From a virus (Duplodnaviria; Heunggongvirae; Uroviricota; Caudoviricetes), in IMG/VR virus record IMGVR_UViG_2671180710_000023, positions 1 to 38,215 of that record: DNA of 38,215 nt. The stretch is one strand, 5' to 3'. Shown in pieces: positions 1-36,669 of the stretch; position 1 is the stretch's first letter; the number at the start of each line of letters is the position of its first letter. A program made the translations under genes and the position numbers. Under the pieces are notes generated by a model that did no database searches, was not told the DNA's origin, and saw nothing but the letters and a program-made list of their open reading frames with translations.

Positions 1-522
1 TCTGCACTGCCCGTTGGTGTGCCTGTTCCGTGGCCCTCAGCCACACCGCCAGCAGGGTGGCTGAAATGTAACGGAGCAGCATTTTCTTCTGAAATGTACC
101 CCAATCTGGCAAAGGCTTATCCTACAAATAAACTACCGGATCTACGGGGTGAATTTATCCGTGGCTGGGATGACGGACGTGGCGTGGATGCGGGGCGAGC
201 CTTGCTAAGGCTTCAGGATGACTCTTTTGAAGCGCACAGGCATGAGTCCTTTTTTTATGCGGGTATTTCACGCAATGAAATCCCATTAAAAAATCTTCCA
301 AGTTCAGACGAGATGCTGACTTTAAGTTCCACAACTAATGCCTTGTCACCGGACGGTATTGATGCCACCAATTCGTTAATTGGTAATGACGATTACAACT
401 GTCTTATCGAAGGGAATAAAAATAACAAACGAACAGCAACGGGTCTAAGTACCAGTATTGTCGGCGCAACTGAAACCCGCCCCCGTAACATTGCGTTTAA
501 TTACATCGTAAGGGCGGCATAG
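1..522 (+). CDS. Silent tail-fibre C-terminal (receptor-binding tip) cassette 1, 5-prime end cut by window edge
   Basis: Frame 1 from position 1 encodes SALPVGVPVPWPSATPPAGWLKCNGAAFSSEMYP...LPDLRGEFIRGWDDGRG (tail-collar-like block) and ends ETRPRNIAFNYIVRAA; same conserved ends as the expressed fibre C-terminus; no RBS or ATG of its own. Confidence 0.6.
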   Translation, partial: SALPVGVPVPWPSATPPAGWLKCNGAAFSSEMYPNLAKAYPTNKLPDLRGEFIRGWDDGRGVDAGRALLRLQDDSFEAHRHESFFYAGISRNEIPLKNLPSSDEMLTLSSTTNALSPDGIDATNSLIGNDDYNCLIEGNKNNKRTATGLSTSIVGATETRPRNIAFNYIVRAA

Positions 523-541
523 AAACGTTGGTTTGGGGGAA
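516..541 (+). other. hix/gix-like 26-bp crossover site (GGCATAGAAACG-TT-GGTTTGGGGGAA) at cassette 1/2 junction
   Basis: Reverse complement TTCCCCCAAACC-AA-CGTTTCTATGCC resembles Gin/Hin/Cin-family sites (12-2-12 layout with AAACC...GGTTT core); inverted relative to the site at 3054-3079. Confidence 0.6.
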
Positions 542-964
542 GGCTCAGCGCTGCCCGTTGGTGTGCCCGTTCCGTGGCCCTCAGCCACACCGCCAGCAGG
601 GTGGCTGAAATGTAACGGCGCAGCATTTTCTTCTGAAATGTACCCCAATCTGGCAAAGGCTTATCCTACAAATAAATTACCGGATTTACGGGGTGAGTTT
701 ATTCGCGGCTGGGATGACGGGCGGGGAATTGATTCAGGACGCACTCTACTTTCGTTACAGGGCGATATGTTTAAATCGCACAGTCATTACTTCCGTGAAA
801 TATGGGGTGCAAATGGACCAGATGGAACTGGTGGACCGTACATTGTCGGGGCGGATACAAACGGTTCGAGAATAAATTTAGGCACTATAGAAACCAGTGC
901 ACCTGGTGGTTCAGAAACCCGTCCCCGTAACATTGCATTTAATTACATCGTAAGAGCCGTATGA
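533..964 (+). CDS. Silent tail-fibre C-terminal cassette 2
   Basis: ORF opens in the crossover site with GEGSALPVGVPVPWP..., has a unique middle and ends ETRPRNIAFNYIVRAV; apparent TTG start lies inside the site, consistent with a fusion-only module. Confidence 0.6.
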   Translation: MGEGSALPVGVPVPWPSATPPAGWLKCNGAAFSSEMYPNLAKAYPTNKLPDLRGEFIRGWDDGRGIDSGRTLLSLQGDMFKSHSHYFREIWGANGPDGTGGPYIVGADTNGSRINLGTIETSAPGGSETRPRNIAFNYIVRAV

Positions 965-983
965 AAACGTTGGTTTGGGGGAA
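958..983 (+). other. hix/gix-like crossover site (CGTATGAAAACG-TT-GGTTTGGGGGAA) at cassette 2/3 junction
   Basis: Same half-site GGTTTGGGGGAA and central TT as the other cassette sites. Confidence 0.6.
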
Positions 984-1448
984 GGCTCTGCACTGCCCGT
1001 TGGTGTGCCTGTTCCGTGGCCCTCAGCCACACCGCCAGCAGGGTGGCTGAAATGTAACGGAGCAGCATTTTCTTCTGAAATGTACCCCAAACTGGCAAAG
1101 GCTTACCCCGCGAATAAATTACCGGATTTACGGGGTGAGTTTATTCGTGGCTGGGATGACGGGCGCGGGATTGATCCTGGTCGCCAGTTGCTTGGGTGGC
1201 AGAAAGGTACTTTGGTTGGTGGTAGAGATGACAATGATGCCGCAGTTGATATTTCATATATGAGTAACGGAAATAGTATTGATTACGGTGGCGATAAAAC
1301 ATTTTCAACGAATTACCGGAGTGATTATTTATGGTATGCAATTCTGGGTAACGTCACTGGTCGTGCCAAAGCTGCTTTAAGTGGGTCCTTTTTTAATGTA
1401 ACTCGTCCACGCAACATCGCCTTTAACTACATTGTGAGAGCAGCATAG
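975..1448 (+). CDS. Silent tail-fibre C-terminal cassette 3
   Basis: Conserved N-terminal tail-collar block, unique middle, conserved end VTRPRNIAFNYIVRAA. Confidence 0.6.
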   Translation: MGEGSALPVGVPVPWPSATPPAGWLKCNGAAFSSEMYPKLAKAYPANKLPDLRGEFIRGWDDGRGIDPGRQLLGWQKGTLVGGRDDNDAAVDISYMSNGNSIDYGGDKTFSTNYRSDYLWYAILGNVTGRAKAALSGSFFNVTRPRNIAFNYIVRAA

Positions 1449-1467
1449 AAACGTTGGTTTGGGGGAA
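1442..1467 (+). other. hix/gix-like crossover site (AGCATAGAAACG-TT-GGTTTGGGGGAA) at cassette 3/4 junction
   Basis: Near-identical to the site at 516-541. Confidence 0.6.
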
Positions 1468-1962
1468 GGCTCTGCACTGCCCGTTGGTGTGCCCGTTCCG
1501 TGGCCCTCAGCCACACCGCCAGCAGGGTGGCTGAAATGTAACGGCGCAGCATTTTCTTCTGAAATGTACCCCAAACTGGCAAAAGCCTACCCCGCGAATA
1601 AATTACCGGATTTACGGGGTGAGTTTATTCGTGGCTGGGATGACGGGCGGGGAATTGATTCAGGGCGTTCCTTGCTTAATGCACAATCACATTCGGTTAT
1701 AGATCATATTCACTATATGGAGTTATGGACTGGTGAAGGGCTTGCCGCAAATAGCACCCGTGCAGGAACAAACCCTGGTATACTGGCTACATACGGTGAT
1801 GGCGGGATTGTTAAAACAGATGAGTCAGGTGTAAAAGTTCCATCTTCACTACGTGCTATTGGCACTCGTGGTGTTTATAGATTAGGTGCCAACGGAGGGA
1901 ATACAGGAACGGAAAACCGCCCCCGTAATATTGCGTTTAACTATATTGTAAGGGCTACTTAA
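1459..1962 (+). CDS. Silent tail-fibre C-terminal cassette 4 (the only cassette followed by its own Tfa gene)
   Basis: Conserved N-terminal block, unique middle, end ENRPRNIAFNYIVRAT; its TAA stop overlaps the ATG of the downstream tfa (TAATGA). Confidence 0.6.
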   Translation: MGEGSALPVGVPVPWPSATPPAGWLKCNGAAFSSEMYPKLAKAYPANKLPDLRGEFIRGWDDGRGIDSGRSLLNAQSHSVIDHIHYMELWTGEGLAANSTRAGTNPGILATYGDGGIVKTDESGVKVPSSLRAIGTRGVYRLGANGGNTGTENRPRNIAFNYIVRAT

Positions 1963-2579
1963 TGAATAATGCTGCTGCAGTACTTGATCAGAATGGTATC
2001 GCTATAACTGCAGGCGATATTACCGTTTATAACTACGATGCTGAAAACCGTGAATATCTCTCTGCCACTGTTGAGTATCTCGCTTATGGTGTTGGAATTC
2101 CGGCTCACTCATGCATTGACGCGCCACCAGAAAAACGCCCCGGCTTCGCTGTCTGTCGTGATACCGACCAGAACATCTGGAAATATGTTCCAGACCACAG
2201 AGGAGAAACGGTTTACAGCACAGAGAATGGTAACGCTGTGCAAATCACACGACCGGGAGATTACCCTCCTGATACGACGGTGAAACAGCCAGCTACTATC
2301 TATGATGTCTGGGATGGTGAGACCTGGGTGACAGATGCGGGACGACAGCACGCAGCAGAACTGGAAGCTGCCGGAGCGCATCGTCAGCAACTTGAGGAAC
2401 AGGCAATGGCATCTGTTGAGCTTATAAATCTCAAACTACGAGCCGGACGCCGATTGACGCCCCAGGAGACGGAAAAACTAAACGCCGTGCTTGATTTCAT
2501 AGATGTGCTTAATGCGACTGACATCAGCACTGCACCGGATATCAACTGGCCGGAAATGCCTCTGGCAGCAGCCAGTTGA
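1962..2579 (+). CDS. Tail fibre assembly chaperone (Tfa; Mu U / lambda Tfa family)
   Basis: C-terminal VLDFIDVLNATDISTAPDINWPEMP matches the Tfa-family signature (lambda Tfa ...TSTAPDIEWP...); HRGETVY motif; coupled to cassette 4; convergent with the expressed fibre gene. Confidence 0.75.
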   Translation: MNNAAAVLDQNGIAITAGDITVYNYDAENREYLSATVEYLAYGVGIPAHSCIDAPPEKRPGFAVCRDTDQNIWKYVPDHRGETVYSTENGNAVQITRPGDYPPDTTVKQPATIYDVWDGETWVTDAGRQHAAELEAAGAHRQQLEEQAMASVELINLKLRAGRRLTPQETEKLNAVLDFIDVLNATDISTAPDINWPEMPLAAAS

Positions 2580-2585
2580 ATATAA

Positions 2586-3554
2586 CTAAGCCGCCCTCAC
2601 GATATAGTTAAATGCAATATTGCGGGGGCGGGTTTCACTACCACCTGTGTTACCAATACTTCCTCGTGAATGAAGCGTTGGTGATGGAGTCAAACTCCCT
2701 CCTGTATTTGTGGCATCAAGCCCCCTGCCTTGTGTATATGTTTTTTTGAAAATCGTAGCCAACTCCCATTCATCTTTTGTGTCATATCCATCGTTAGCTA
2801 CAACAATATGGCGGTGTTTTTCCAACATCCCGTTTTGAATGCTCAATAAAGCGCGTGCCGCATCAATTCCTCGCCCATCATCCCAGCCACGGATAAATTC
2901 TCCGCGTAAATCCGGTAATTTATTCGCGGGGTAGGCTTTTGCCAGTTTGGGGTACATTTCAGAAGAAAATGCTGCACCGTTACATTTCAGCCAGCCCGTT
3001 GGTGGTGTTGCTAAGGGCCACGGAACGGGCACACCAACGGGCAGTGCAGAGCCTTCTCCCAAACCAAGGTTTTTGACAAACAGCGCAGGCTCAGGAATAT
3101 CTGCGCCGTTCTGGTCTTTAGCCAGCTTTTCCGCCAGCTTGTTCAGTACCGTAGTCGCAAAGTTTGGATCATTACCGAGAGCGTCAGCCAGCTCTTTAAG
3201 CGTATCCAGTGTCTCAGGGGCGCTGCCTGCAAGTGCCGCAAGTGCTTTGGACACAAACTCCGTCGTCGCCAGCTTTTTGCTGTTATCACCATTTGCAGGT
3301 GTAGGTGCTGTTGGTGTGCCGGTGAATGTCGGACTGGCTTTCGTCGCGTACTGGGTATGCGGGTCAACTGCCGCGATATGTGCAGCCAGGTCTGTTCCGC
3401 TTTTTTCGACCTTCTGTTTGAGGTATGACGTTCGGCTGGCCAGTTGTTTAGCCTGGCGGTTAGAAATTCCGTCAGGTCCGCCCAGAACGGGGTCAGAGAC
3501 CTCAATCTGGTAGATGCCGTCTTCCCACTGCGGGGTTTCGGGTAGATTTGCCAT
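2586..3554 (-). CDS. Tail fibre protein (constant N-terminal part fused to the currently expressed variable C-terminal tip)
   Basis: 322 aa; N-terminal constant region; from residue ~163 (LGLGEGSALPVGVPVPWP...) shares the cassette conserved block and ends ETRPRNIAFNYIVRAA; sits after baseplate genes in Mu S position. Confidence 0.8.
   Translation of the reverse strand: MANLPETPQWEDGIYQIEVSDPVLGGPDGISNRQAKQLASRTSYLKQKVEKSGTDLAAHIAAVDPHTQYATKASPTFTGTPTAPTPANGDNSKKLATTEFVSKALAALAGSAPETLDTLKELADALGNDPNFATTVLNKLAEKLAKDQNGADIPEPALFVKNLGLGEGSALPVGVPVPWPLATPPTGWLKCNGAAFSSEMYPKLAKAYPANKLPDLRGEFIRGWDDGRGIDAARALLSIQNGMLEKHRHIVVANDGYDTKDEWELATIFKKTYTQGRGLDATNTGGSLTPSPTLHSRGSIGNTGGSETRPRNIAFNYIVRAA
3054..3079 (+). 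other. hix/gix-like crossover site inside expressed tail fibre gene (TTCTCCCAAACC-AA-GGTTTTTGACAA)
   Basis: At the constant/variable junction (codons FVKNLGLGEG); inverted repeat of cassette sites; resembles gix TTCCTGTAAACCGAGGTTTTGGATAA as recalled. Confidence 0.6.
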
Positions 3555-3556
3555 AA

Positions 3557-4135
3557 TTAACTGCTCCCGTGGTTGTAACTACCGTCATAACGGGTAGTAC
3601 TGTTGTATCGAATGGCGACAGACTGATATTCCAGACTTGCCAGATGACAGCGAGCCGGAGCAAAGGCAGCAAGCGTCTGACGTAACAGCGCCGCCTGATC
3701 GTTAGTGATGGGTTGTTGAAGGATGACGCGATAGACTGCCCAGGCTTGTGCATCACCATGGACGAAAAGCCCGTTGTACGTGTGTCTGCCGTCATAGCCA
3801 ATCTGCCCCGTACCTTCAATCAGATCCACTTCGCCGAAGCCAAAACGGCGGATAATTTCCCGGATTGACCACGGTGTTCCTTTATAGCGGTGTAGCTCAA
3901 TAGCGGATTTGATAAGCATGCGGCGTACATCGTCCGATTCCGCCAGTTCCCAGCCATCGCCGAACAGCGAGAACTGCTCGCCAAGCCATGGCAGCGCGGA
4001 ACTGTCGACAATATCGACGAGACCGACCATCAGTACGCTCAGGTCGATGTTATCCAGCCGTCGGGCCAGTCTTCCCAGCGTTCTGAGACTGATATCACCC
4101 TCAAGCGGTGGCGGGAGTTGTAGCACCTCAGCCAT
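3557..4135 (-). CDS. Baseplate/tail-fibre attachment protein (P2 gpI / Mu gp48-like)
   Basis: 192-aa ORF immediately upstream of the tail fibre gene in the baseplate cluster; start overlaps stop of the J-like gene. Confidence 0.6.
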   Translation of the reverse strand: MAEVLQLPPPLEGDISLRTLGRLARRLDNIDLSVLMVGLVDIVDSSALPWLGEQFSLFGDGWELAESDDVRRMLIKSAIELHRYKGTPWSIREIIRRFGFGEVDLIEGTGQIGYDGRHTYNGLFVHGDAQAWAVYRVILQQPITNDQAALLRQTLAAFAPARCHLASLEYQSVAIRYNSTTRYDGSYNHGSS

Positions 4136-5231
4136 CGGACACCCCGGTCATGTTAAGAGTGATCGCTGTACAGTTTGCCCATTCGTTTTCTGCCACCACC
4201 CTCAGTGCCGGTGTCACCAGTTCGACCTGGTACACCCCGGAAACGGACAACACGCTGATAATCTGGCTGGGAACAATATCGCGCCCCAGCGTGGCGGTAC
4301 GGGATGCCACCCAGTTCTGTATGGCGCTGTTAGCGTTGTCCTTTACCAACCTTGCATCCTGATCACGATAGATCGTAATCCTGGCTTCAATGGTGTAATC
4401 CACCTGAACAGGTGTTTTAGCCCGCACGGTATCAGTGAGTGGTCTGACTTTTTCGTCAGAACAGAAACTCTCTACCAGAGTGAGGATACTGCTGTCCGGC
4501 AGACCAGTGCTGAGCAGCGGATACAGCTCGACAGTGCCGGGAGCGGGAGAAAGAACAGCAACGTCGACAATGCCGGGATGCGCCCCCATAGCATGAAAAC
4601 GGTATGCACCACGGCTTCCGGCATTGGTGAATGACTCCGGGGCCAGCCTGATACGCTCCCGGAGCCGGTCATCGTCTTCCTGCTCTGAACCGCCAGAGCT
4701 GGCCGTCAGATTGGTCACCAGCAGGTCAATGTTATCAATCTCATCGAGTAACTGACTGACCTGCGCCGGTTGCCAGCCGTTGCCAGCGGTACCCGGCTCG
4801 GTACAGGTGGCCGTGACATTGACCAGCAGCAATCCGGCCTTCAGCACCACATCTGTATCGGTGGCAAAAATAATACTGTCGGAAGCGCTGACGCGGGTGC
4901 CTGCCGGGATCAGCACATCAATGGCCAGTGCCTCATCCACAGAGAACTGAAGTGTGGTGGTGGCAGGCTGCGCAGCAAGGCGGTATACGCCGACCAGTTC
5001 ACCGAGGTAATCAATCATCGGCTCACGGGAAAAAGCGACCAGATTCTGCTTCGCCGCCTCCTGTACTGCCACCCTGACCAGCATTTCGCGATAGGCCCAC
5101 AGGTCAATCAGCAGACGTTCAGCCTGTGCCGGGTACAGCGTTTTTCCGGTATCCTCTTCATACTTCGCAATCATTTCTGCCGTGATTTTATCGGCATCGC
5201 GTTCAATAAAATCGGGTTCTGTCAGCGCCAT
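4128..5231 (-). CDS. Baseplate J-like protein (P2 gpJ / Mu gp47-like)
   Basis: 367-aa ORF in conserved position between W-like and I-like genes; overlapping start/stop coupling. Confidence 0.65.
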   Translation of the reverse strand: MALTEPDFIERDADKITAEMIAKYEEDTGKTLYPAQAERLLIDLWAYREMLVRVAVQEAAKQNLVAFSREPMIDYLGELVGVYRLAAQPATTTLQFSVDEALAIDVLIPAGTRVSASDSIIFATDTDVVLKAGLLLVNVTATCTEPGTAGNGWQPAQVSQLLDEIDNIDLLVTNLTASSGGSEQEDDDRLRERIRLAPESFTNAGSRGAYRFHAMGAHPGIVDVAVLSPAPGTVELYPLLSTGLPDSSILTLVESFCSDEKVRPLTDTVRAKTPVQVDYTIEARITIYRDQDARLVKDNANSAIQNWVASRTATLGRDIVPSQIISVLSVSGVYQVELVTPALRVVAENEWANCTAITLNMTGVSDG

Positions 5232-22750: not shown

Positions 22751-23397
22751 TTCTGTAATCCTTCCCGTTCATCCAGTAGCGCGTTTATCTGGTTCCGCCA
22801 GCGACGACATTGCCCTGCGTTGTCGATGATGTTGGCGAGAACGTCACGCTGGGAGACGCCTGAGTCGCGTAGCCAGGCGTCAGCGGTTTCAGGTTGCCCG
22901 GTCGCTGCGCCAGTGCCGGTGCCAGCGGCGGCAACTGAGTCTGAATGACCGCTGTCGACGGATGCGTTGTCATATCCGAGTGCGGCGTTGTACTGGCGCA
23001 CGAAACCGCGAGTAAACACGCACTCAATGGGATGGCTCTTACCTTTTTCATCAATCCAGCGCTGTGTGACATCGTTAATTTGCCCCTGTAGTTGTTTGTT
23101 CTGACTCTCCAGTTGAGCAATCTGCCCAAGATAACCGGCCTCAGCCCGTTGCCCGGCGGCCACCTGCTCCTGATACCGTCTGGCCCAGGCCCGCAGTGCA
23201 GCGTTCTCAAGCGTTGTCTGCTCTGTTTTGTACGTGTCGAATGCTGACTGCAACTGGCTGAGCGCGATATCACCGTCACGCTTTGCAGAGTCATGACCAC
23301 TTCTGTATCCCATGGCATACAGGCCGACCAGAAAGGCATTGATAAGAATGGCCAGCAGAATGCCGCGCCACGGTAGATTTTTAACCAGATGCCACAC
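22747..23397 (-). CDS. i-spanin (Rz-like)
   Basis: Probable GTG start at 23397 with GGAGG 8 nt upstream; N-terminal TM (WRGILLAILINAFLVGLYAMGY), long coiled-coil periplasmic domain; follows endolysin. Confidence 0.65.
   Translation of the reverse strand: MWHLVKNLPWRGILLAILINAFLVGLYAMGYRSGHDSAKRDGDIALSQLQSAFDTYKTEQTTLENAALRAWARRYQEQVAAGQRAEAGYLGQIAQLESQNKQLQGQINDVTQRWIDEKGKSHPIECVFTRGFVRQYNAALGYDNASVDSGHSDSVAAAGTGTGAATGQPETADAWLRDSGVSQRDVLANIIDNAGQCRRWRNQINALLDEREGLQK
22785..23051 (-). CDS. o-spanin (Rz1-like lipoprotein) embedded in alternate frame of Rz
   Basis: MKKVRAIPLSACLLAVSCAS... signal peptide with lipobox-like AVSC then Pro-rich mature region; wholly inside the Rz gene. Confidence 0.55.
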   Translation of the reverse strand: MKKVRAIPLSACLLAVSCASTTPHSDMTTHPSTAVIQTQLPPLAPALAQRPGNLKPLTPGYATQASPSVTFSPTSSTTQGNVVAGGTR

Positions 23398-24121
23398 AGC
23401 TGCTGCCTCCCCATGTGAGATATCGCGGTGCCAGCTCGTGCAGGATGCGCTGCGGATAATGGCGGTTCTCCCGCCAGCTGGCCGCATTGCGTCCGGCATT
23501 CACCGTGGCGACATGTCCGAACCAGCGGGTGCTGTCCAGACCTTTCTGTGATGCAAGCCGCCTGTCCCGTTGTACCCAGCCCAGACCACCGTTATAGCCC
23601 GACAGTGTCATGGCCATACGCTCGCAGTCACTGGCGGCGCTGACACGCTGCCACAGCCAGCGGTCATAGCTGACCAGCGCCCGGATAGCCCATGCCGGAT
23701 TAAACGGCTCACGACTGCTCAGCATCGGTATCAACTGGCTTATCCAGTCGGCAGTGGCAGGCATGAACTGCGCCAGTCCCTGAGCGCCAGCCGGCGAGAT
23801 CGCATCAGGTCGCCAGCCGCTTTCCTGATGCAGTTGCGCGGCGAAATCGGCCACCGGCGCAGACAGTCCCCATTCAAGCCGGGCATTACGGATCACATCA
23901 TCGCGATACTGCAGCGCAGCCTGCGGAGGTTGTGCTGCGCATGCCTGGCTGAAAAAGCCGCCACACCAGAGCAACATTGCGACAAAGAATACCCATGCCA
24001 TATGAACCAGAAAGGTCCCGGCGCGGACTGACAGGCGTTCGGTTCTGATGAAGACCCGAAAGGCTTCGAAAGCCAGTTTCAGGGACATGCATACAATCCA
24101 GGTGATCTGCGGCCAGTTCAT
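23381..24121 (-). CDS. Endolysin, lytic transglycosylase (SLT-domain) type with N-terminal signal-anchor
   Basis: Hydrophobic N-terminal segment (MAWVFFVAMLLWCGGFF) then HQESGW catalytic-Glu motif region and GAQGLAQFMP typical of SLT domains. Confidence 0.7.
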   Translation of the reverse strand: MNWPQITWIVCMSLKLAFEAFRVFIRTERLSVRAGTFLVHMAWVFFVAMLLWCGGFFSQACAAQPPQAALQYRDDVIRNARLEWGLSAPVADFAAQLHQESGWRPDAISPAGAQGLAQFMPATADWISQLIPMLSSREPFNPAWAIRALVSYDRWLWQRVSAASDCERMAMTLSGYNGGLGWVQRDRRLASQKGLDSTRWFGHVATVNAGRNAASWRENRHYPQRILHELAPRYLTWGGSSCVASG

Positions 24122-24123
24122 GA

Positions 24124-24474
24124 TTAAAGCCCCATCGCAACAGCCAGGCAGACCGCTGCAACAATCAGTGCACGGCGGATTAACGCAGCAGAAAACACCA
24201 GGTGAAGGCCGGTCTGTACCGGGAAACGCCCTTCAGCCATCAGCCTGTCGTCATGTTTCAGGTACTGACCGGGACGGGCTTTGGGGAAGAGCGAACGGTC
24301 AAGCCAGTAACCCAGCACTGCTGCCAGCGTGATGAGTGCCAGCTTGTAGATCACAACAGGCAGCTGCTGTGGTGAGACCAGAGCGATGGTGCCCAGCAAC
24401 AGCACTGAGGTCAGCAGCCAGCCGCTGAGGCGAGGTTTTTTAACAGGGGGAATGAATTTTTTCAGGTTTTTCAT
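24124..24474 (-). CDS. Holin-like membrane protein (first gene of late/lysis transcript)
   Basis: ATG at 24474 with GAGGAG RBS; 2-3 predicted TM helices; immediately upstream of endolysin. Confidence 0.55.
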   Translation of the reverse strand: MKNLKKFIPPVKKPRLSGWLLTSVLLLGTIALVSPQQLPVVIYKLALITLAAVLGYWLDRSLFPKARPGQYLKHDDRLMAEGRFPVQTGLHLVFSAALIRRALIVAAVCLAVAMGL

Positions 24475-24604
24475 GTGTGTCTCCTCGTTTGGTGGAGACA
24501 GCATCACAAATACAGGGCGCAAAGGATTTTAAAGCGCGTTAAGAGAGCCGAGGATACGGGATGTGCAGGATAAACGATGAATTATTCACAGAGGAGAATA
24601 CGAT

Positions 24605-25790: not shown

Positions 25791-26777
25791 CTATTTAAGA
25801 ATAAAACGGTACTTACTGTCAGGAGTGCTTTGCTGATCAAGTAGCAGTGAACGACATGGAGCAGTCAAAACCCGAGCATAACTACCATCAGGGCTTATGT
25901 TAATGTAACAAACCTTGCCCTTAACACTATAATTTTCGGGGACGGATGCCTTTGCTGATACAGTAAATTTAAGGGTATGCCAGCCCGTTTTTTGCTTGTA
26001 GCTTGAAACCGAATGGAAATCATCTGAGTACTTATTTAACCCTGGAAACATGCTGCGCAGTGCGGGGATGGAATCTTCTATTATTTTATCGTTGGTTTTA
26101 ATGTTAAAAACGCTGGTTTCAGTAGAAGCTACTGCTTTGGCATTTCCCCATTTACCAGCGAACACAATCATTCCCACGAAAAATATTGCTACAAGAACTA
26201 ACACTCCCCCCAACACTACTACATGAGGCTTCCGGCTTCTGGTTGGTACAGTTGCGACTGATTTTGCACCGCTTTCCGATGGAGGTGATAGAGTTTTACT
26301 CTCATCACGAATATTCAGCAGATCATCAAAATAACCAAACACAGCCTGCAACTGCTCTTTGTCTAGGCCTTTAAGATGGGTTGTACCGAAATGCTTCAGA
26401 CAGTATCTGTCACGGTCAAGACGATACCCAGGGTCAGTAAGCGCCATTATTTTGCTGACCAGAAGATTACAGTCCTTCATATTCTGGATCTGTTGTGCAT
26501 ATCTCTGAAGGATCTCAACCGCACCATGATAATCAGCCGCAGTCATTTCATTAACTGTTTTGGTATTAAGTTTCGTGTGGATCGTCATCCATAGCTCGCG
26601 CTTACTTTCCCCCAGATCAACCAATTCATCCATCAATCTGTGTAAATCGCGTTTTTGCAGCAACGAAATTGGTTGCTGGGCCGAAGGAAGTATGTCAGCA
26701 GAATAGTTATGAATGGTAACATCACCGCTGACAACGTTACCCACATCCCCGTTAACTGTTTGCTTCTCTTTACTCAT
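25791..26777 (-). CDS. Single-pass membrane protein (repressor operon, translationally coupled to repressor)
   Basis: ATGA overlap with repressor stop; ~180-aa cytoplasmic N-domain, TM helix (VVVLGGVLVLVAIFFVGMIVFAG), ~120-aa C-domain; AT-rich codon usage unlike structural genes. Confidence 0.55.
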   Translation of the reverse strand: MSKEKQTVNGDVGNVVSGDVTIHNYSADILPSAQQPISLLQKRDLHRLMDELVDLGESKRELWMTIHTKLNTKTVNEMTAADYHGAVEILQRYAQQIQNMKDCNLLVSKIMALTDPGYRLDRDRYCLKHFGTTHLKGLDKEQLQAVFGYFDDLLNIRDESKTLSPPSESGAKSVATVPTRSRKPHVVVLGGVLVLVAIFFVGMIVFAGKWGNAKAVASTETSVFNIKTNDKIIEDSIPALRSMFPGLNKYSDDFHSVSSYKQKTGWHTLKFTVSAKASVPENYSVKGKVCYINISPDGSYARVLTAPCRSLLLDQQSTPDSKYRFILK

Positions 26778-27235
26778 CTTCTCTTGGTATTTTTGTTCAC
26801 TATTCCACCTGTTCCTATGGTTACGTTACCTTTGATAACATTCCCCAGAACATCTCCATGAATAACCTGTTCCGCCCGTTCTCTGGAGGAGCCAGTAGTC
26901 AAGGCCGACAAAACTGAACCTTTGACCTGTAATGGTGCCTGCCGGTAGTGCTGCAGTAACTCCATTTCATCACGTGATAAAGTTATACCTGATGACTCCC
27001 CGGTAAGAATGAACTGTACATTGGCCCCAATTCTTGCAAAGGCTGCAAGTAACTCACCTCCGGGAACAGCAACCCCTCGTTCATATTTCCCCCACATTTC
27101 TCTTGAAACGCCACAAAGGGCTGCTACTTCAGCCTGCTTGAGTGATAACCGCGAACGCTCAGCTTTGAACCGCGACGCGCAAAGAGAATCAAAATTCACA
27201 TAAACCTCATTGACAATGAGAACTATAGTTCTCAT
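26774..27235 (-). CDS. XRE-family HTH repressor (c-repressor analogue)
   Basis: HTH_3-like LSLKQAEVAALCGVSREMWGKYERGVAVPGGELLAAFARIGANVQFIL; divergent from Ner-like gene across operator-bearing promoter; true start may be GTG near 27199. Confidence 0.7.
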   Translation of the reverse strand: MRTIVLIVNEVYVNFDSLCASRFKAERSRLSLKQAEVAALCGVSREMWGKYERGVAVPGGELLAAFARIGANVQFILTGESSGITLSRDEMELLQHYRQAPLQVKGSVLSALTTGSSRERAEQVIHGDVLGNVIKGNVTIGTGGIVNKNTKRR

Positions 27236-28763: not shown

Positions 28764-30533
28764 ATGAATGCTGCCCTGACTGAACGACTGGTTTATGTCG
28801 CCCGCGCGGCACGTGACGCGGGGCATGGTAAACGCGGTGCAATATACGACGCTGCCTGTGCTGAACTTGGCATGTCCCGCGCCACTCTGCTGCGCAGGCT
28901 GAAGGAGGTATCTGTGACTGATAAACGCAAAAAACGCGCCGATGCCGGGCGCAGCGCCCTGACCCGCGACGAAGCCGCGCTGATATCTGCCACACTACGT
29001 GAGGCCACCCGCAAGAACGGTAAGCGTCTCTATTCCATCGCGGATGCAGTGGAAACCCTGCGGGCTAACGGCTTTATCTCCGCAGGCAGAACAGATGAAA
29101 CCACCGGTGAGTTTTTCCCGTTGTCCGAAGATGCCATCAGTCGTGCCCTGCGTAACTATGGCCTGCACCCGGAACAACTGGATGCCCCTGCGCCGCATAC
29201 CGAAGTGGCCAGTCTGCATCCCAATCATGTCTGGCAGATTGACGCCTCACTCTGCACGCTTTACTACCTGAGCAATGGACATAAAGGGCTGCAGGTGATG
29301 GACAGCGCGAAGTTCTACAAGAACAAGCCCGCTAACCTTGCCCGTATCGCCAGTGACCGCGTGTGGAGTTACGAGATTACCGACCATGCCAGCGGCTGGA
29401 TTTACGTTGAGTATGTGACGGGCGCGGAATCAGGTGAGAACCTGTGTTCTGTGCTTATCAACGCCATGCAGGAGCGTGGCGGCGCAGACGTGCTGCACGG
29501 CGTGCCGAAAATACTCTATCTCGACCCCGGCTCGGCAAACACCGCGGGTATGACGAAAAACATGTGCCGCTCACTGGGCATCGACCTGATAGCGCACAAG
29601 CCGCATAACGCCCGCGCCACCGGACAGGTGGAAAAGGCGCGTGACATTATCGAACGCAAGCTGGAGCCGGGTCTGAAATTCCGGCCGGTTCACAGTCTGG
29701 AAGAACTCAACGCGCTGGCCGCGAAATGGCGCAGCCACTTTAACGCAACAGCTGTTCACAGCCGCCACGGTAAAACCCGCACGGATATCTGGCTGAAGAT
29801 TACTGCTGAGCAGCTGAAAAAAGCGCCTTCCGTTGAGGTATGCCGTGAACTGGCTGTGGCGACACCAGAACTCCGCAAAGTCACGCCAAAACTTCGTGTC
29901 TCGTTCCGGGGCACTGAATTTGACGTATCAACGGTACCGGGCGTACTGGTTGGTGAAAAACTGATGATTACCCGTAACCCGTGGCGCAGCGATGTGGCAC
30001 AGGTGGTTCTGACCGGTGAGGACGGCCACGAGACGTTCTTCCTGGTCGAAGAGGTCAGAAAGAACGAGTTTGGCTTTGCTGAAGGCGCGGCGGTATTTGG
30101 CGAAAGTTACAAAGCCCTGCCGGAAACACCGGCACAGACGGCGGCAAAAGAAACCGAAGCGCTGGTCACCGGTACAGACAACGCCGCAGATGCAGCTGCC
30201 GCACGCAAGGCGAAGGCGCTGCCGTTCGGCGGGCGGCTTGACCCGTATAAACATATTGATGACGCCACACTTCCGGCCTGTATACCGAAGCGCGGTCAGG
30301 TCTCTGATGTACGCAGACCGCGCACTGAACAACGTCCCATGACTCATGTGGAGGCCGCGAAAGCCCTGCGCGATAAGTTCAGCGCCGACGGCCTTACCTG
30401 GACGCCGGAACATTACCGCCAGTTAACGGCACAGTACCCGGACGGCGTACCGGAAGCCGCACTGGATGAAGTAGTGGCCACGCTGACCACGCCGGCCCGC
30501 AGCAGCGTTATCAGCATTGTTAACGGCAACTGA
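28764..30533 (+). CDS. DDE transposase (Mu A-like, rve/integrase-core family)
   Basis: 589 aa; HVWQIDAS and LYLDPGSANT blocks consistent with DDE catalytic core; followed by overlapping AAA+ B gene. Confidence 0.8.
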   Translation: MNAALTERLVYVARAARDAGHGKRGAIYDAACAELGMSRATLLRRLKEVSVTDKRKKRADAGRSALTRDEAALISATLREATRKNGKRLYSIADAVETLRANGFISAGRTDETTGEFFPLSEDAISRALRNYGLHPEQLDAPAPHTEVASLHPNHVWQIDASLCTLYYLSNGHKGLQVMDSAKFYKNKPANLARIASDRVWSYEITDHASGWIYVEYVTGAESGENLCSVLINAMQERGGADVLHGVPKILYLDPGSANTAGMTKNMCRSLGIDLIAHKPHNARATGQVEKARDIIERKLEPGLKFRPVHSLEELNALAAKWRSHFNATAVHSRHGKTRTDIWLKITAEQLKKAPSVEVCRELAVATPELRKVTPKLRVSFRGTEFDVSTVPGVLVGEKLMITRNPWRSDVAQVVLTGEDGHETFFLVEEVRKNEFGFAEGAAVFGESYKALPETPAQTAAKETEALVTGTDNAADAAAARKAKALPFGGRLDPYKHIDDATLPACIPKRGQVSDVRRPRTEQRPMTHVEAAKALRDKFSADGLTWTPEHYRQLTAQYPDGVPEAALDEVVATLTTPARSSVISIVNGN

Positions 30534-30543
30534 GGAGGGAAAC

Positions 30544-31710
30544 ATGCTGGTACTGAAGCAGCAACTGAAAGAGGCCCGTATTCCACAGGCGGTGGTGGCG
30601 AGAGCTGTCGATGTTTCTGAGGCCACGCTGGCCCAGATTGTGAATCATAACGCGTGGCCCCGCACCAGCCCCGGAGAAGTGCGCCGGCGTCTTGCGTCCT
30701 GGCTGGAAAGTCAGGGAATTGATACAGCGAAGAGTTTTGATGCTGTACAGGGCGCGGCCACGCCCCGTACAGCGGGTACCACAGATAAAACGAGCCTCAG
30801 TGAGGAAGAGAATATGTTACTCAAAAAACAGGTGTTATTTCCAGCAACCAAAAAAGCGTTTGGTCTTTTTCGTGACCCGTTCGCCGACGAAGCCATGCAG
30901 GGTTCTGATGATGTGTTCACCACACCAGACATTCGCTACGTGCGTGAGGCGTTGTACCAGACAGCCCGTCATGGTGGGTTTATGGCCGTCATCGGTGAGT
31001 CCGGTGCGGGTAAATCCACGCTGCGCCGCGACCTGACTGAACGTATTAACCGCGAGAATGCGCCAGTAATTGTTATTGAGCCATACATCATCGCTATGGA
31101 AGATAACGATGTGAAAGGGAAAACCCTGAAGGCAGCAGCTATTGCCGAAGCCATTATCAGTACCATCGCACCACTGGAAAGCATCAGACGCAGTCAGGAC
31201 GCCCGCTTTCGCCAGTTGCATCGCGTCCTGAAAGACAGCAGCCAGGCGGGGTTCAGCCACGTTCTGGTGATTGAGGAGGCCCACAGTCTGCCCATTCCGA
31301 CACTGAAACACCTCAAACGCTTTTTTGAGCTGGAGTCCGGTTTCAAAAAACTGCTGTCCATCGTGCTGATTGGCCAGCCGGAACTGGCGACAAAACTGTC
31401 TGAACGCAATATGGAAGTCCGTGAAGTCGTTCAGCGCTGTGAGGTGGTCGAACTTCTGCCTCTGGACAATAACCTTGAAGAATTTCTGACGTTCAAACTG
31501 CAACGGGCCGGTAAACAGCTGACGGACATTATGGACGCCAGCGCAGTGGATGCCATACGTGCCCGCCTGAGCAATCCGGGAAGTCACCGTAAAAATATGG
31601 TCAGCCTGCTGTATCCGCTGGCCGTCAGTAACCTGGTAATAGCCGCCATGAATCTGGCAGCTGAAATCGGGGTTCCACAGGTCAACGCTGACGTTGTCAA
31701 AGGGGTTTAA
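30544..31710 (+). CDS. Transposition ATPase (Mu B / TniB-like AAA+)
   Basis: ATG 30544 preceded by GAGGAGGG; Walker A GESGAGKST, Walker B VLVIEEAH; immediately after transposase. Confidence 0.8.
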   Translation: MLVLKQQLKEARIPQAVVARAVDVSEATLAQIVNHNAWPRTSPGEVRRRLASWLESQGIDTAKSFDAVQGAATPRTAGTTDKTSLSEEENMLLKKQVLFPATKKAFGLFRDPFADEAMQGSDDVFTTPDIRYVREALYQTARHGGFMAVIGESGAGKSTLRRDLTERINRENAPVIVIEPYIIAMEDNDVKGKTLKAAAIAEAIISTIAPLESIRRSQDARFRQLHRVLKDSSQAGFSHVLVIEEAHSLPIPTLKHLKRFFELESGFKKLLSIVLIGQPELATKLSERNMEVREVVQRCEVVELLPLDNNLEEFLTFKLQRAGKQLTDIMDASAVDAIRARLSNPGSHRKNMVSLLYPLAVSNLVIAAMNLAAEIGVPQVNADVVKGV

Positions 31711-36479: not shown

Positions 36480-36669
36480 CATCCTTTTTGTTACGGGTCA
36501 TGTTTCAGCAAACTCGATTCTAAGTTGCCAGGAAGGATGATTTCAATGCCCGACTTATCTATCGTATAGCGGAAAAGAATTTCAGTTCTGTTCACCAGAA
36601 CCCATGTTAACCCACTCCAATTCGTTATTTATCTCACGGATCCCCCTTCATTTATCTCATGTCTGATCA
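36480..36669. repeat. Right-end terminal region with repeated TTTCA-containing motifs (putative transposase-binding sites) ending ...TGATCA
   Basis: Recurrent CATGTTTCAG / GATTTCAATG / AATTTCAGTT / TTATTTATCTCA / TCATTTATCTCA motifs in the last ~190 bp before the host junction; Mu R-end sites contain TTTCA cores. Confidence 0.45.

Follow-up and report, generated by a model that had tools for sequence, protein, structure and literature searches.

A single tail-fibre chaperone gene, convergent with one tip cassette, is a conserved feature of a probable Gin/Min-type multiple-inversion locus in a Mu-like prophage

In the G segment of phage Mu, two crossover sites enclose a mirrored pair of fibre tips, each with its own chaperone gene. 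The P1/D6-like elements are built on the same plan (two sites, mirrored Sv-U / U'-S'v, each tip co-transcribed with its own chaperone). In the Min system of p15B and the P1-like IncY phage-plasmids, a Din-family invertase acts on several crossover sites to give alternative 3' ends of a tail-fibre gene; the 26-bp sites number more than two, the invertible segments overlap and the tips are of the collar type. We describe here the fibre locus of the virus record IMGVR_UViG_2671180710_000023 (IMG/VR; Caudoviricetes), all 38,215 nucleotides of which were analysed and are referred to as the window. The window is almost the whole of a Mu/BcepMu-like transposable prophage, with the fibre array at the prophage end. 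The locus belongs to the Din-family (Gin/Cin/Pin/Hin/Min) fibre switches and, within them, to the Min/p15B-type multiple-inversion systems, with which it shares the site number and size, the overlapping segments and the tip type just given. With the G segment of Mu and its invertase Gin, and with the C segment of P1 and its invertase Cin, it has in common a site in the fibre gene, a Gin-like invertase at the element end, as far as its relatives show, and a chaperone gene on invertible DNA. It is unlike both in having at least five sites, one tail-fibre assembly gene (tfa) for five or more tips, and one tip that is never co-transcribed with tfa; a co-oriented chaperone gene for each tip, which characterises the mirrored Mu/P1 segments, is not what this locus has. 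This asymmetry is a conserved design and is neither transient, degenerate nor damaged.

Loci with an invertase, several inverted repeats and alternative C-termini are also described for the P2-like prophage of enteropathogenic Escherichia coli (EPEC) E2348/69 (PMC4272514), for EC958 Phi1/2/4 (PMC4134206) and for the Enterobacter phage FRphi (PMC13418256), and resemble the present one in these respects. For EC958 a mirrored layout is reported, in which each tip has a cognate gene for a minor fibre (PMC4134206); EC958 Phi4 was considered as a mirrored comparison and is of limited use, its tip being of a non-collar type. Chaperone genes are not mentioned in the passages searched of the EPEC (PMC4272514) and FRphi (PMC13418256) reports, and no discussion of a single-chaperone design was found in the parts searched of recent shufflon papers. 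A study of Xenorhabdus tailocins poses the same general question, whether a common chaperone serves or none is needed (PMC13280938). In T4 (PMC9608196), lambda and HK97, where nothing inverts, fibre and chaperone genes share an operon, with the chaperone gene immediately downstream, unlike in the window.

In the window, the expressed fibre gene runs on the minus strand to a TAG stop at 2588-2586, and tfa runs towards it on the plus strand to a TGA stop at 2577-2579 (Table 1), leaving 6 nt between the convergent stops; the initial annotation had put the two ends within 7 bp, which is this gap, and the convergence that it described is confirmed. Upstream of tfa lie four plus-strand collar cassettes (c1-c4), and the ATG of tfa overlaps the TAA stop of the last of them (TAATG). 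None of c1-c3 is directly followed by a tfa, and the list of open reading frames (ORFs), the Pfam matches and the cassette alignment agree with the earlier statement to this effect. The fifth cassette, c5, is the one fused to the constant part (Sc) of the fibre gene. A second tfa, whose absence had likewise been claimed, was sought by tblastn with five different Tfa proteins and was found nowhere in the 38 kb.

All five cassettes match Pfam Collar and have in common an invariant N-terminal block of ~66 aa (SALPVGVPVPWP...DDGRG; PWP...DDGRG) and an invariant C-terminal RPRNIAFNYIVRA, which enclose a variable middle of 60-100 aa. Four of the five have an HxH motif (HRH, HSH, HIH, HRH) that recalls the T4 gp37 needle, which binds metal, and the expressed tip matches both collar halves of the T4 gp37 tip (2XGF), including the terminal NIAFNYIVR motif. 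In its gp37 collar halves and HxH motif the locus thus resembles T4 gp37/gp38 and the Stf/Tfa pairs of lambda and HK97. The tips fall into two sub-classes, c3 having no HxH and a DDND-type stretch in its place.

The hix/pix-like pattern TTCYCCCAAACCAASGTTTYT has four matches in the window against 0 expected, three on the minus strand (521-541, 963-983 and 1447-1467) and one on the plus strand (3054-3074). The minus-strand sites precede c2-c4, and the plus-strand site lies at the constant/variable junction of the expressed gene, where the reading frame is continuous across the central AA. This central dinucleotide is common to all four sites; the site at c4 reads TTCCCCCAAACC AA CGTTTCTATGCT on the minus strand and that of the expressed gene TTCTCCCAAACC AA GGTTTTTGACAA, and the sites fit the Mu/P1/e14/p15B consensus quoted in PMC4134206. 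Since the site in the expressed gene is the only one inverted relative to the other three, every inversion from this isomer flips the tfa-containing segment into the sense direction, so that the earlier assertion that any inversion brings tfa into the expressed operon is borne out by the orientation of the sites. No crossover site lies between tfa and c5, in the window or in any relative examined, and tfa is therefore antisense to the late operon whenever c5 is in use. The window starts 3 nt beyond the expected end of a fifth crossover site, from which it follows that the sequence is cut within the array and that the recombinase, and possibly a further cassette, lie outside it; the element accordingly has at least five sites, four in the window and the cut-off one implied at position 1. 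Cassette c1 has lost its 5' end and its crossover site at this edge; its type is also found in L002, L003, L006 and L011.

Relatives were drawn from complete E. coli genomes, IMG/VR and plasmid records (a Tfa-based scan of the genome-contig collection gave none), and the constant part, cassettes, sites, tfa and recombinase were mapped in each locus, 14 of them Mu-like and four from P1-like phages or plasmids. Exactly one tfa is present in all 14 Mu-like and all four P1-like loci, alongside two to seven collar-type cassettes per Mu-like locus and up to nine in the P1-like loci. The order of the core is the same in every locus mapped: site, cassette, tfa, convergent cassette, site. Directly upstream of tfa there is a c4-type cassette, with the stop/start overlap, in 11/11 loci where this stretch is present; the convergent partner is of the c5 type in the 12 clustered loci, and some cassette occupies this place in L018 and L019 as well. 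No Mu-like or P1-like locus mapped has a crossover site between tfa and either neighbouring cassette, and the gap of ~6 nt between the convergent stops recurs in the relatives and in the P1-like loci. The minimal locus, L019 (E. coli 2014C-3075), has the recombinase, c4, tfa and a convergent c5 fused to the constant part, an isomer in the same state as the window. In all 13 loci checked tfa is intact, and Sc, 93-99% identical in amino acids among the relatives, is fused to at least five cassette types. As the same one-tfa core is found across the relatives and no site separates tfa from c5, the asymmetry is built in. It is real, and stronger than the initial annotation had supposed, the convergence of tfa and c5 being permanent in every relative examined, L019 included.

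Two damaged loci were noted. In E. coli MS20655 (L018 4501-5130) tfa and c5 have each lost their 3' end to a deletion of ~0.4 kb, and E. coli A33 (L014 3016-3509) has one frameshifted cassette.

The same module is carried by IncY/P1-like phage-plasmids of E. coli and Salmonella (L015 2400-7600, L016, L020, L009). Their recombinase is 96% identical to that of the window's relatives, and the boundary sequence and the core are the same, with a Tfa that is only ~60% identical. The occurrence of this recombinase, boundary and single-tfa core in IncY/P1-like elements indicates a module common to Mu-like and P1-like phages. The window differs from the Min/P1-like systems in its host, a Mu-like transposable prophage, in its short constant part (~160 aa) and in the ~60% identity of Tfa; its identity with Min proper of p15B is drawn from the P1-like relatives. 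The generalisation that Mu and P1 pair each tip with its own U/U-prime holds for those phages, as checked in P1/D6-like elements, but not for the P1-like plasmids that carry this array.

Mirrored loci with two tips are also found among the relatives of the window. In the sibling prophages (E. coli 97.3, CFS3292) and the Klebsiella phage KP12 the constant part is 99% identical in nucleotides, the recombinase is the same or nearly so, and the crossover sites are shared; unlike in the window, a collar tip, with a Tfa of 200 aa, stands opposite a gp53-like (non-collar) tip with its own downstream gene. In the siblings (L022 3000-6000, L023 2900-6000), where the recombinase is the same and the two tips form a mirrored segment, the downstream gene encodes a 146-aa Tfa with a different N-terminal domain, and the two chaperone genes overlap by 29 nt at their 3' ends. 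In KP12 (L010 1118-1360) the gene after the non-collar tip is an 80-aa ORF with no Pfam match, which lies antisense to tfa and overlaps the 3' end of that gene; it may encode a chaperone not recognised as such, or the beginning of a Tfa resembling the 146-aa protein of L023.

The existence of such two-chaperone mirrored relatives, in the same phage lineage and with the same recombinase protein, speaks for the view that the window holds a degenerate Mu-type G segment that recently lost its second chaperone gene (the U-prime equivalent). We consider this very improbable, and it is already contradicted by the data. The single-tfa core and its 6-nt gap are identical in the 14 Mu-like and four P1-like loci despite a Tfa identity of ~60%, no remnant of a tfa lies between the stops, no conserved antisense ORF lies inside tfa, and the second Tfa of the mirrored loci belongs to another tip class. 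A loss of a second tfa, for which comparison with related prophages had been proposed as the check, is thus not what the relatives indicate, one tfa being the conserved state. A hidden chaperone gene antisense to tfa was also considered and was rejected, because the stretches left open on the antisense strand lack conservation among homologues of tfa.

Evidence that the locus is shuffled in nature comes from 5,426 complete E. coli genomes, which were searched separately with tfa and with the constant part. The two lie a few kb apart in 19 records, with tfa antisense in nine and co-oriented in 10, where free shuffling of a two-faced core would predict 50% per orientation. In near-identical prophages the cassette types are permuted and inverted behind the same constant part, and inversion therefore does occur and isomers exist. 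Coexistence of such isomers within cultures has been shown by long reads, according to the reports on the systems introduced above (PMC4272514; PMC4134206; PMC13418256). E. coli A31 was tried as a simple two-inversion isomer of the window and was rejected, as it has an extra type absent from the window and is without c1.

Tfa proteins were compared with the tips beside them. The window Tfa has a full-length identity of ~60% to its counterparts in HK97, in the P1-like plasmids and in the sibling prophage L023, and the tips that stand beside these proteins have unrelated variable parts and nearly identical collar halves. Tfa thus appears, from these comparisons, to follow the conserved collar halves common to all tips and not the variable parts, and a single Tfa is therefore probably a class-wide chaperone for collar tips. 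In published work, fibre binding is assigned to the variable N-domain of Tfa, and trimerisation is driven by the conserved C-domain (PMC9608196). Together with the Tfa/tip pairings and the gp53-like tips that have a Tfa of their own, N-domain binding suggests that each tip class has one Tfa, and this would account for the single tfa of an array made up of collar tips. A PDB sequence search with Tfa gave no match. Lambda Tfa can substitute for gp38, and T4 gene 37 mutants that bypass gene 38 exist.

From these observations we propose that positions 1-3554 would be the promoter-distal end of a Gin/Min-type multiple-inversion ("shufflon") tail-fibre locus. The constant part (3554-3080) would be joined at a 26-bp site to one of at least five alternative gp37-like collar tips, and a serine invertase, predicted to lie just left of the window as in the relatives, would invert the DNA between oppositely oriented sites. 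The isomer of the window would be the one with c5 joined to the constant part, tfa lying antisense to the late operon; roughly half of the isomers would transcribe tfa together with the fibre gene. Tfa would act on the shared collar halves, that is, on the N-terminal PWP...DDGRG block and the C-terminal RPRNIAFNYIVRA. This explanation as a whole, a Gin/Min-type shufflon with a single class-level Tfa and with c5 assembled without operon-coupled Tfa, is the one that we favour, with modest confidence. The anatomy, the sites, their conservation, the orientation counts and the selection on c5 are shown by the data, and from them the class-wide action of Tfa and the way in which it reaches the c5 tip, or does not, are inferred. 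The component concerning c5, that this tip may need no Tfa or trace amounts of it, is put forward tentatively, with independent transcription of tfa at a low level as its nearest competitor (see below). The remaining weight goes to other routes; for example, isomer mixtures may arise among replicated copies after late read-through into the co-oriented recombinase.

A useless c5 would be expected to leave a trace in its sequence, and the c5-type cassette is intact in all loci except L018 (MS20655). Summed over pairwise comparisons, which are phylogenetically non-independent, the pN/pS of c5 is 0.07 for the whole cassette and 0.09 for its variable part, where the most divergent pair has 19 synonymous against 4 non-synonymous changes. 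The corresponding values are 0.15 for c4 and 0.34 for tfa, the latter from few changes, so that the constraint on c5 is at least as strong. We conclude that c5 is under strong purifying selection, which makes a non-productive ("dead") c5 state unlikely. In a comparison of alleles (L001-L014, window 2586-3053), c5 differs at ~31% of synonymous and 2% of non-synonymous sites, and in the tfa and c4 beside it only 4-5.5% of synonymous sites differ. This divergence indicates that the convergent tip consists of deep allelic lineages within an otherwise young module. A fixed phage fibre ending in a c5-like tip could have shown whether c5 occurs without tfa, and tblastn with the variable part of c5 gave no such non-invertible fibre.

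These data bear directly on the option, raised in the initial annotation, that the locus is in a non-productive state, with the window isomer giving no functional fibres while tfa is antisense, a price paid for shuffling. This reading fits the usual need of gp37-like tips for a chaperone, the absence of a promoter for tfa from the scans (see below) and the FRphi shufflon, in which, of three locked states, a single one was able to infect the host that was tested (PMC13418256). The low pN/pS and the integrity of c5 nevertheless disfavour it, even though c5 is never found with a sense tfa. Moreover, L019 would then work in only one of its two states, and the isomer expressing c5 recurs in independent genomes. 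We therefore regard a non-productive window isomer as quite improbable.

A different solution would be that all tips, c5 included, need Tfa and that tfa is transcribed independently, from a promoter in c4 or at the recombinase-proximal boundary and facing the array; the geometry is such that a promoter at the boundary would transcribe tfa in just those isomers in which late transcription does not. Independent transcription would make every isomer productive and explain how one tfa suffices for up to nine cassettes, and tfa has its own Shine-Dalgarno-like AAGGG 8 nt before the ATG. Two sequences could serve. A sense-direction match, CTGGCA-17-TAAATT, lies ~360 nt upstream of tfa and recurs in every cassette (9/12 in the P1-like cassettes), and Mu-like and P1-like loci alike retain TGGTATAGGT, an extended -10-like element that points into the array from the stretch separating the outermost site and the recombinase start. 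The first of these has been downgraded as a candidate, since the non-invertible stf of HK97 also has the match, which is thus probably a by-product of coding sequence; the second lacks the key final T of the -10 hexamer and a -35. In 1-4200 the tfa strand has no sigma-70-like site that reaches the threshold (the scan gave two sites where 4.4 were expected, and both belong to the opposite strand), and scans of the window and two relatives for sigma-70 promoters and terminators gave nothing above chance on that strand. A comparison of words in the leader gaps of the late operons and in the DNA upstream of tfa gave nothing meaningful, and the two have no motif in common. As there is no terminator-like site in 1-4200, including between the convergent genes, a weak promoter would meet late transcription head-on. 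The own promoter for tfa that had been envisaged in the initial annotation thus has no support from any promoter scan, and we consider independent transcription of tfa possible but doubtful.

Several points weigh against the explanation that we favour. The fixed collar fibre of HK97 has a co-oriented chaperone directly downstream (stf-tfa), the mirrored sibling loci have one co-oriented Tfa per tip, and T4 gp37 requires both gp57A and gp38 (PMC9608196); taken together, these point to a role for co-transcription and to a chaperone as the normal requirement of gp37-like tips. Tfa is reported to be retained on the mature fibre in Mu and Ur-lambda (PMC9608196), which calls for stoichiometric amounts and not traces. 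No sequence feature of c5 marks self-folding. That Tfa acts on the whole class is judged from only four or five Tfa/tip pairs, and the estimate of selection on c5, besides its non-independent comparisons, may be affected by gene conversion in the first 210 nt. In a further variant the single tfa would itself be a switched gene, inversion altering both the choice of tip and the production of Tfa, with tips carrying or lacking a Tfa cap and c5 obligately Tfa-free; this we hold to be improbable. Were it true, Tfa-capped and uncapped tips would add a second layer of host-range variation.

The retargeting of phages and tailocins by tip swap usually fails without a matching chaperone. Here we have a natural array in which a single chaperone gene goes with up to nine gp37-like tips, one of which is never transcribed together with it, and which could show what part of a tip the chaperone recognises and whether a gp37-like tip folds without one. 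The design also bears on the bet-hedging cost of DNA shuffling, that is, on the fraction of isomers that give infective particles. The element itself is of an ordinary kind, with a design feature that is real and conserved.

Table 1 Features of the fibre locus and of selected other genes in the window
Feature	Position	Strand	Basis
Silent tip cassette c1, collar type, HRH	1-522	+	Pfam Collar E 1.4e-14; alignment
26-bp crossover site at start of c2; central dinucleotide 529-528	516-541	-	0 mismatches
Silent tip cassette c2, collar type, HSH	533-964	+	Pfam Collar E 3.8e-15
26-bp crossover site at start of c3	958-983	-	1 mismatch
Silent tip cassette c3, collar type, no HxH	975-1448	+	Pfam Collar E 3.7e-14
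26-bp crossover site at start of c4, left edge of invariant core	1442-1467	-	0 mismatches
Silent tip cassette c4, directly upstream of tfa	1459-1962	+	Pfam Collar E 2.1e-14
Weak sigma-70-like match CTGGCA-17-TAAATT, 8/12, in collar-coding part of c4	1576-1604	+	Sequence; below scan threshold
tfa, 205 aa, sole chaperone gene of the element	1962-2579	+	Pfam Caudo_TAP (PF02413) E 1.5e-25, 90.3 bits against cut-off 22.1, residues 80-200; tblastn
Spacer between convergent stops, 6 nt, no terminator	2580-2585		Sequence; terminator scan
Expressed fibre gene, 322 aa	3554-2586	-	Pfam Collar E 1.1e-13
Tip cassette c5, HRH, fused to constant part, expressed	2586-3053	-	Alignment; 2XGF E 2.3e-16
26-bp crossover site in expressed fibre gene	3054-3079	+	Pattern match
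Constant 5' fibre part Sc, ~160 aa: baseplate attachment and short shaft	3080-3554	-	Relatives
Baseplate protein, P2 gpI family, directly upstream of fibre gene, late tail operon	3557-4135	-	Pfam Tail_P2_I E 6.1e-24
SLT lysin	23381-24121	-	
Holin	24124-24522	-	
HTH repressor	26774-27235	-	
rve transposase	28764-30533		
AAA+ MuB-like protein	30517-31710		

Besides the genes listed in Table 1, the window has homologues of Mu gp27, TerL, Portal_Mu and Mu F in 4128-38215, together with P2-like baseplate genes, and a host M16 peptidase gene begins at 36659. The relatives are inserted at varied points of the chromosome and adjoin truncated host genes, as expected for transposition. The window itself starts inside the array, and the invertase gene is seen in the relatives only. 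In all of them it encodes a serine invertase of 190 aa, is separated from the outermost site by ~60 nt and runs in the same direction as the tail operon; the protein matches Mu Gin (PDB 3UJ3, E 2.9e-90) and Pfam Resolvase and HTH_7. Conservation across Mu-like and P1-like loci extends to the 60 nt that separate the recombinase start from the outermost site, TGGTATAGGT included (L001 5940-6000; L002-L020), and this boundary could be a promoter or control region of the invertase, or a promoter facing the array.

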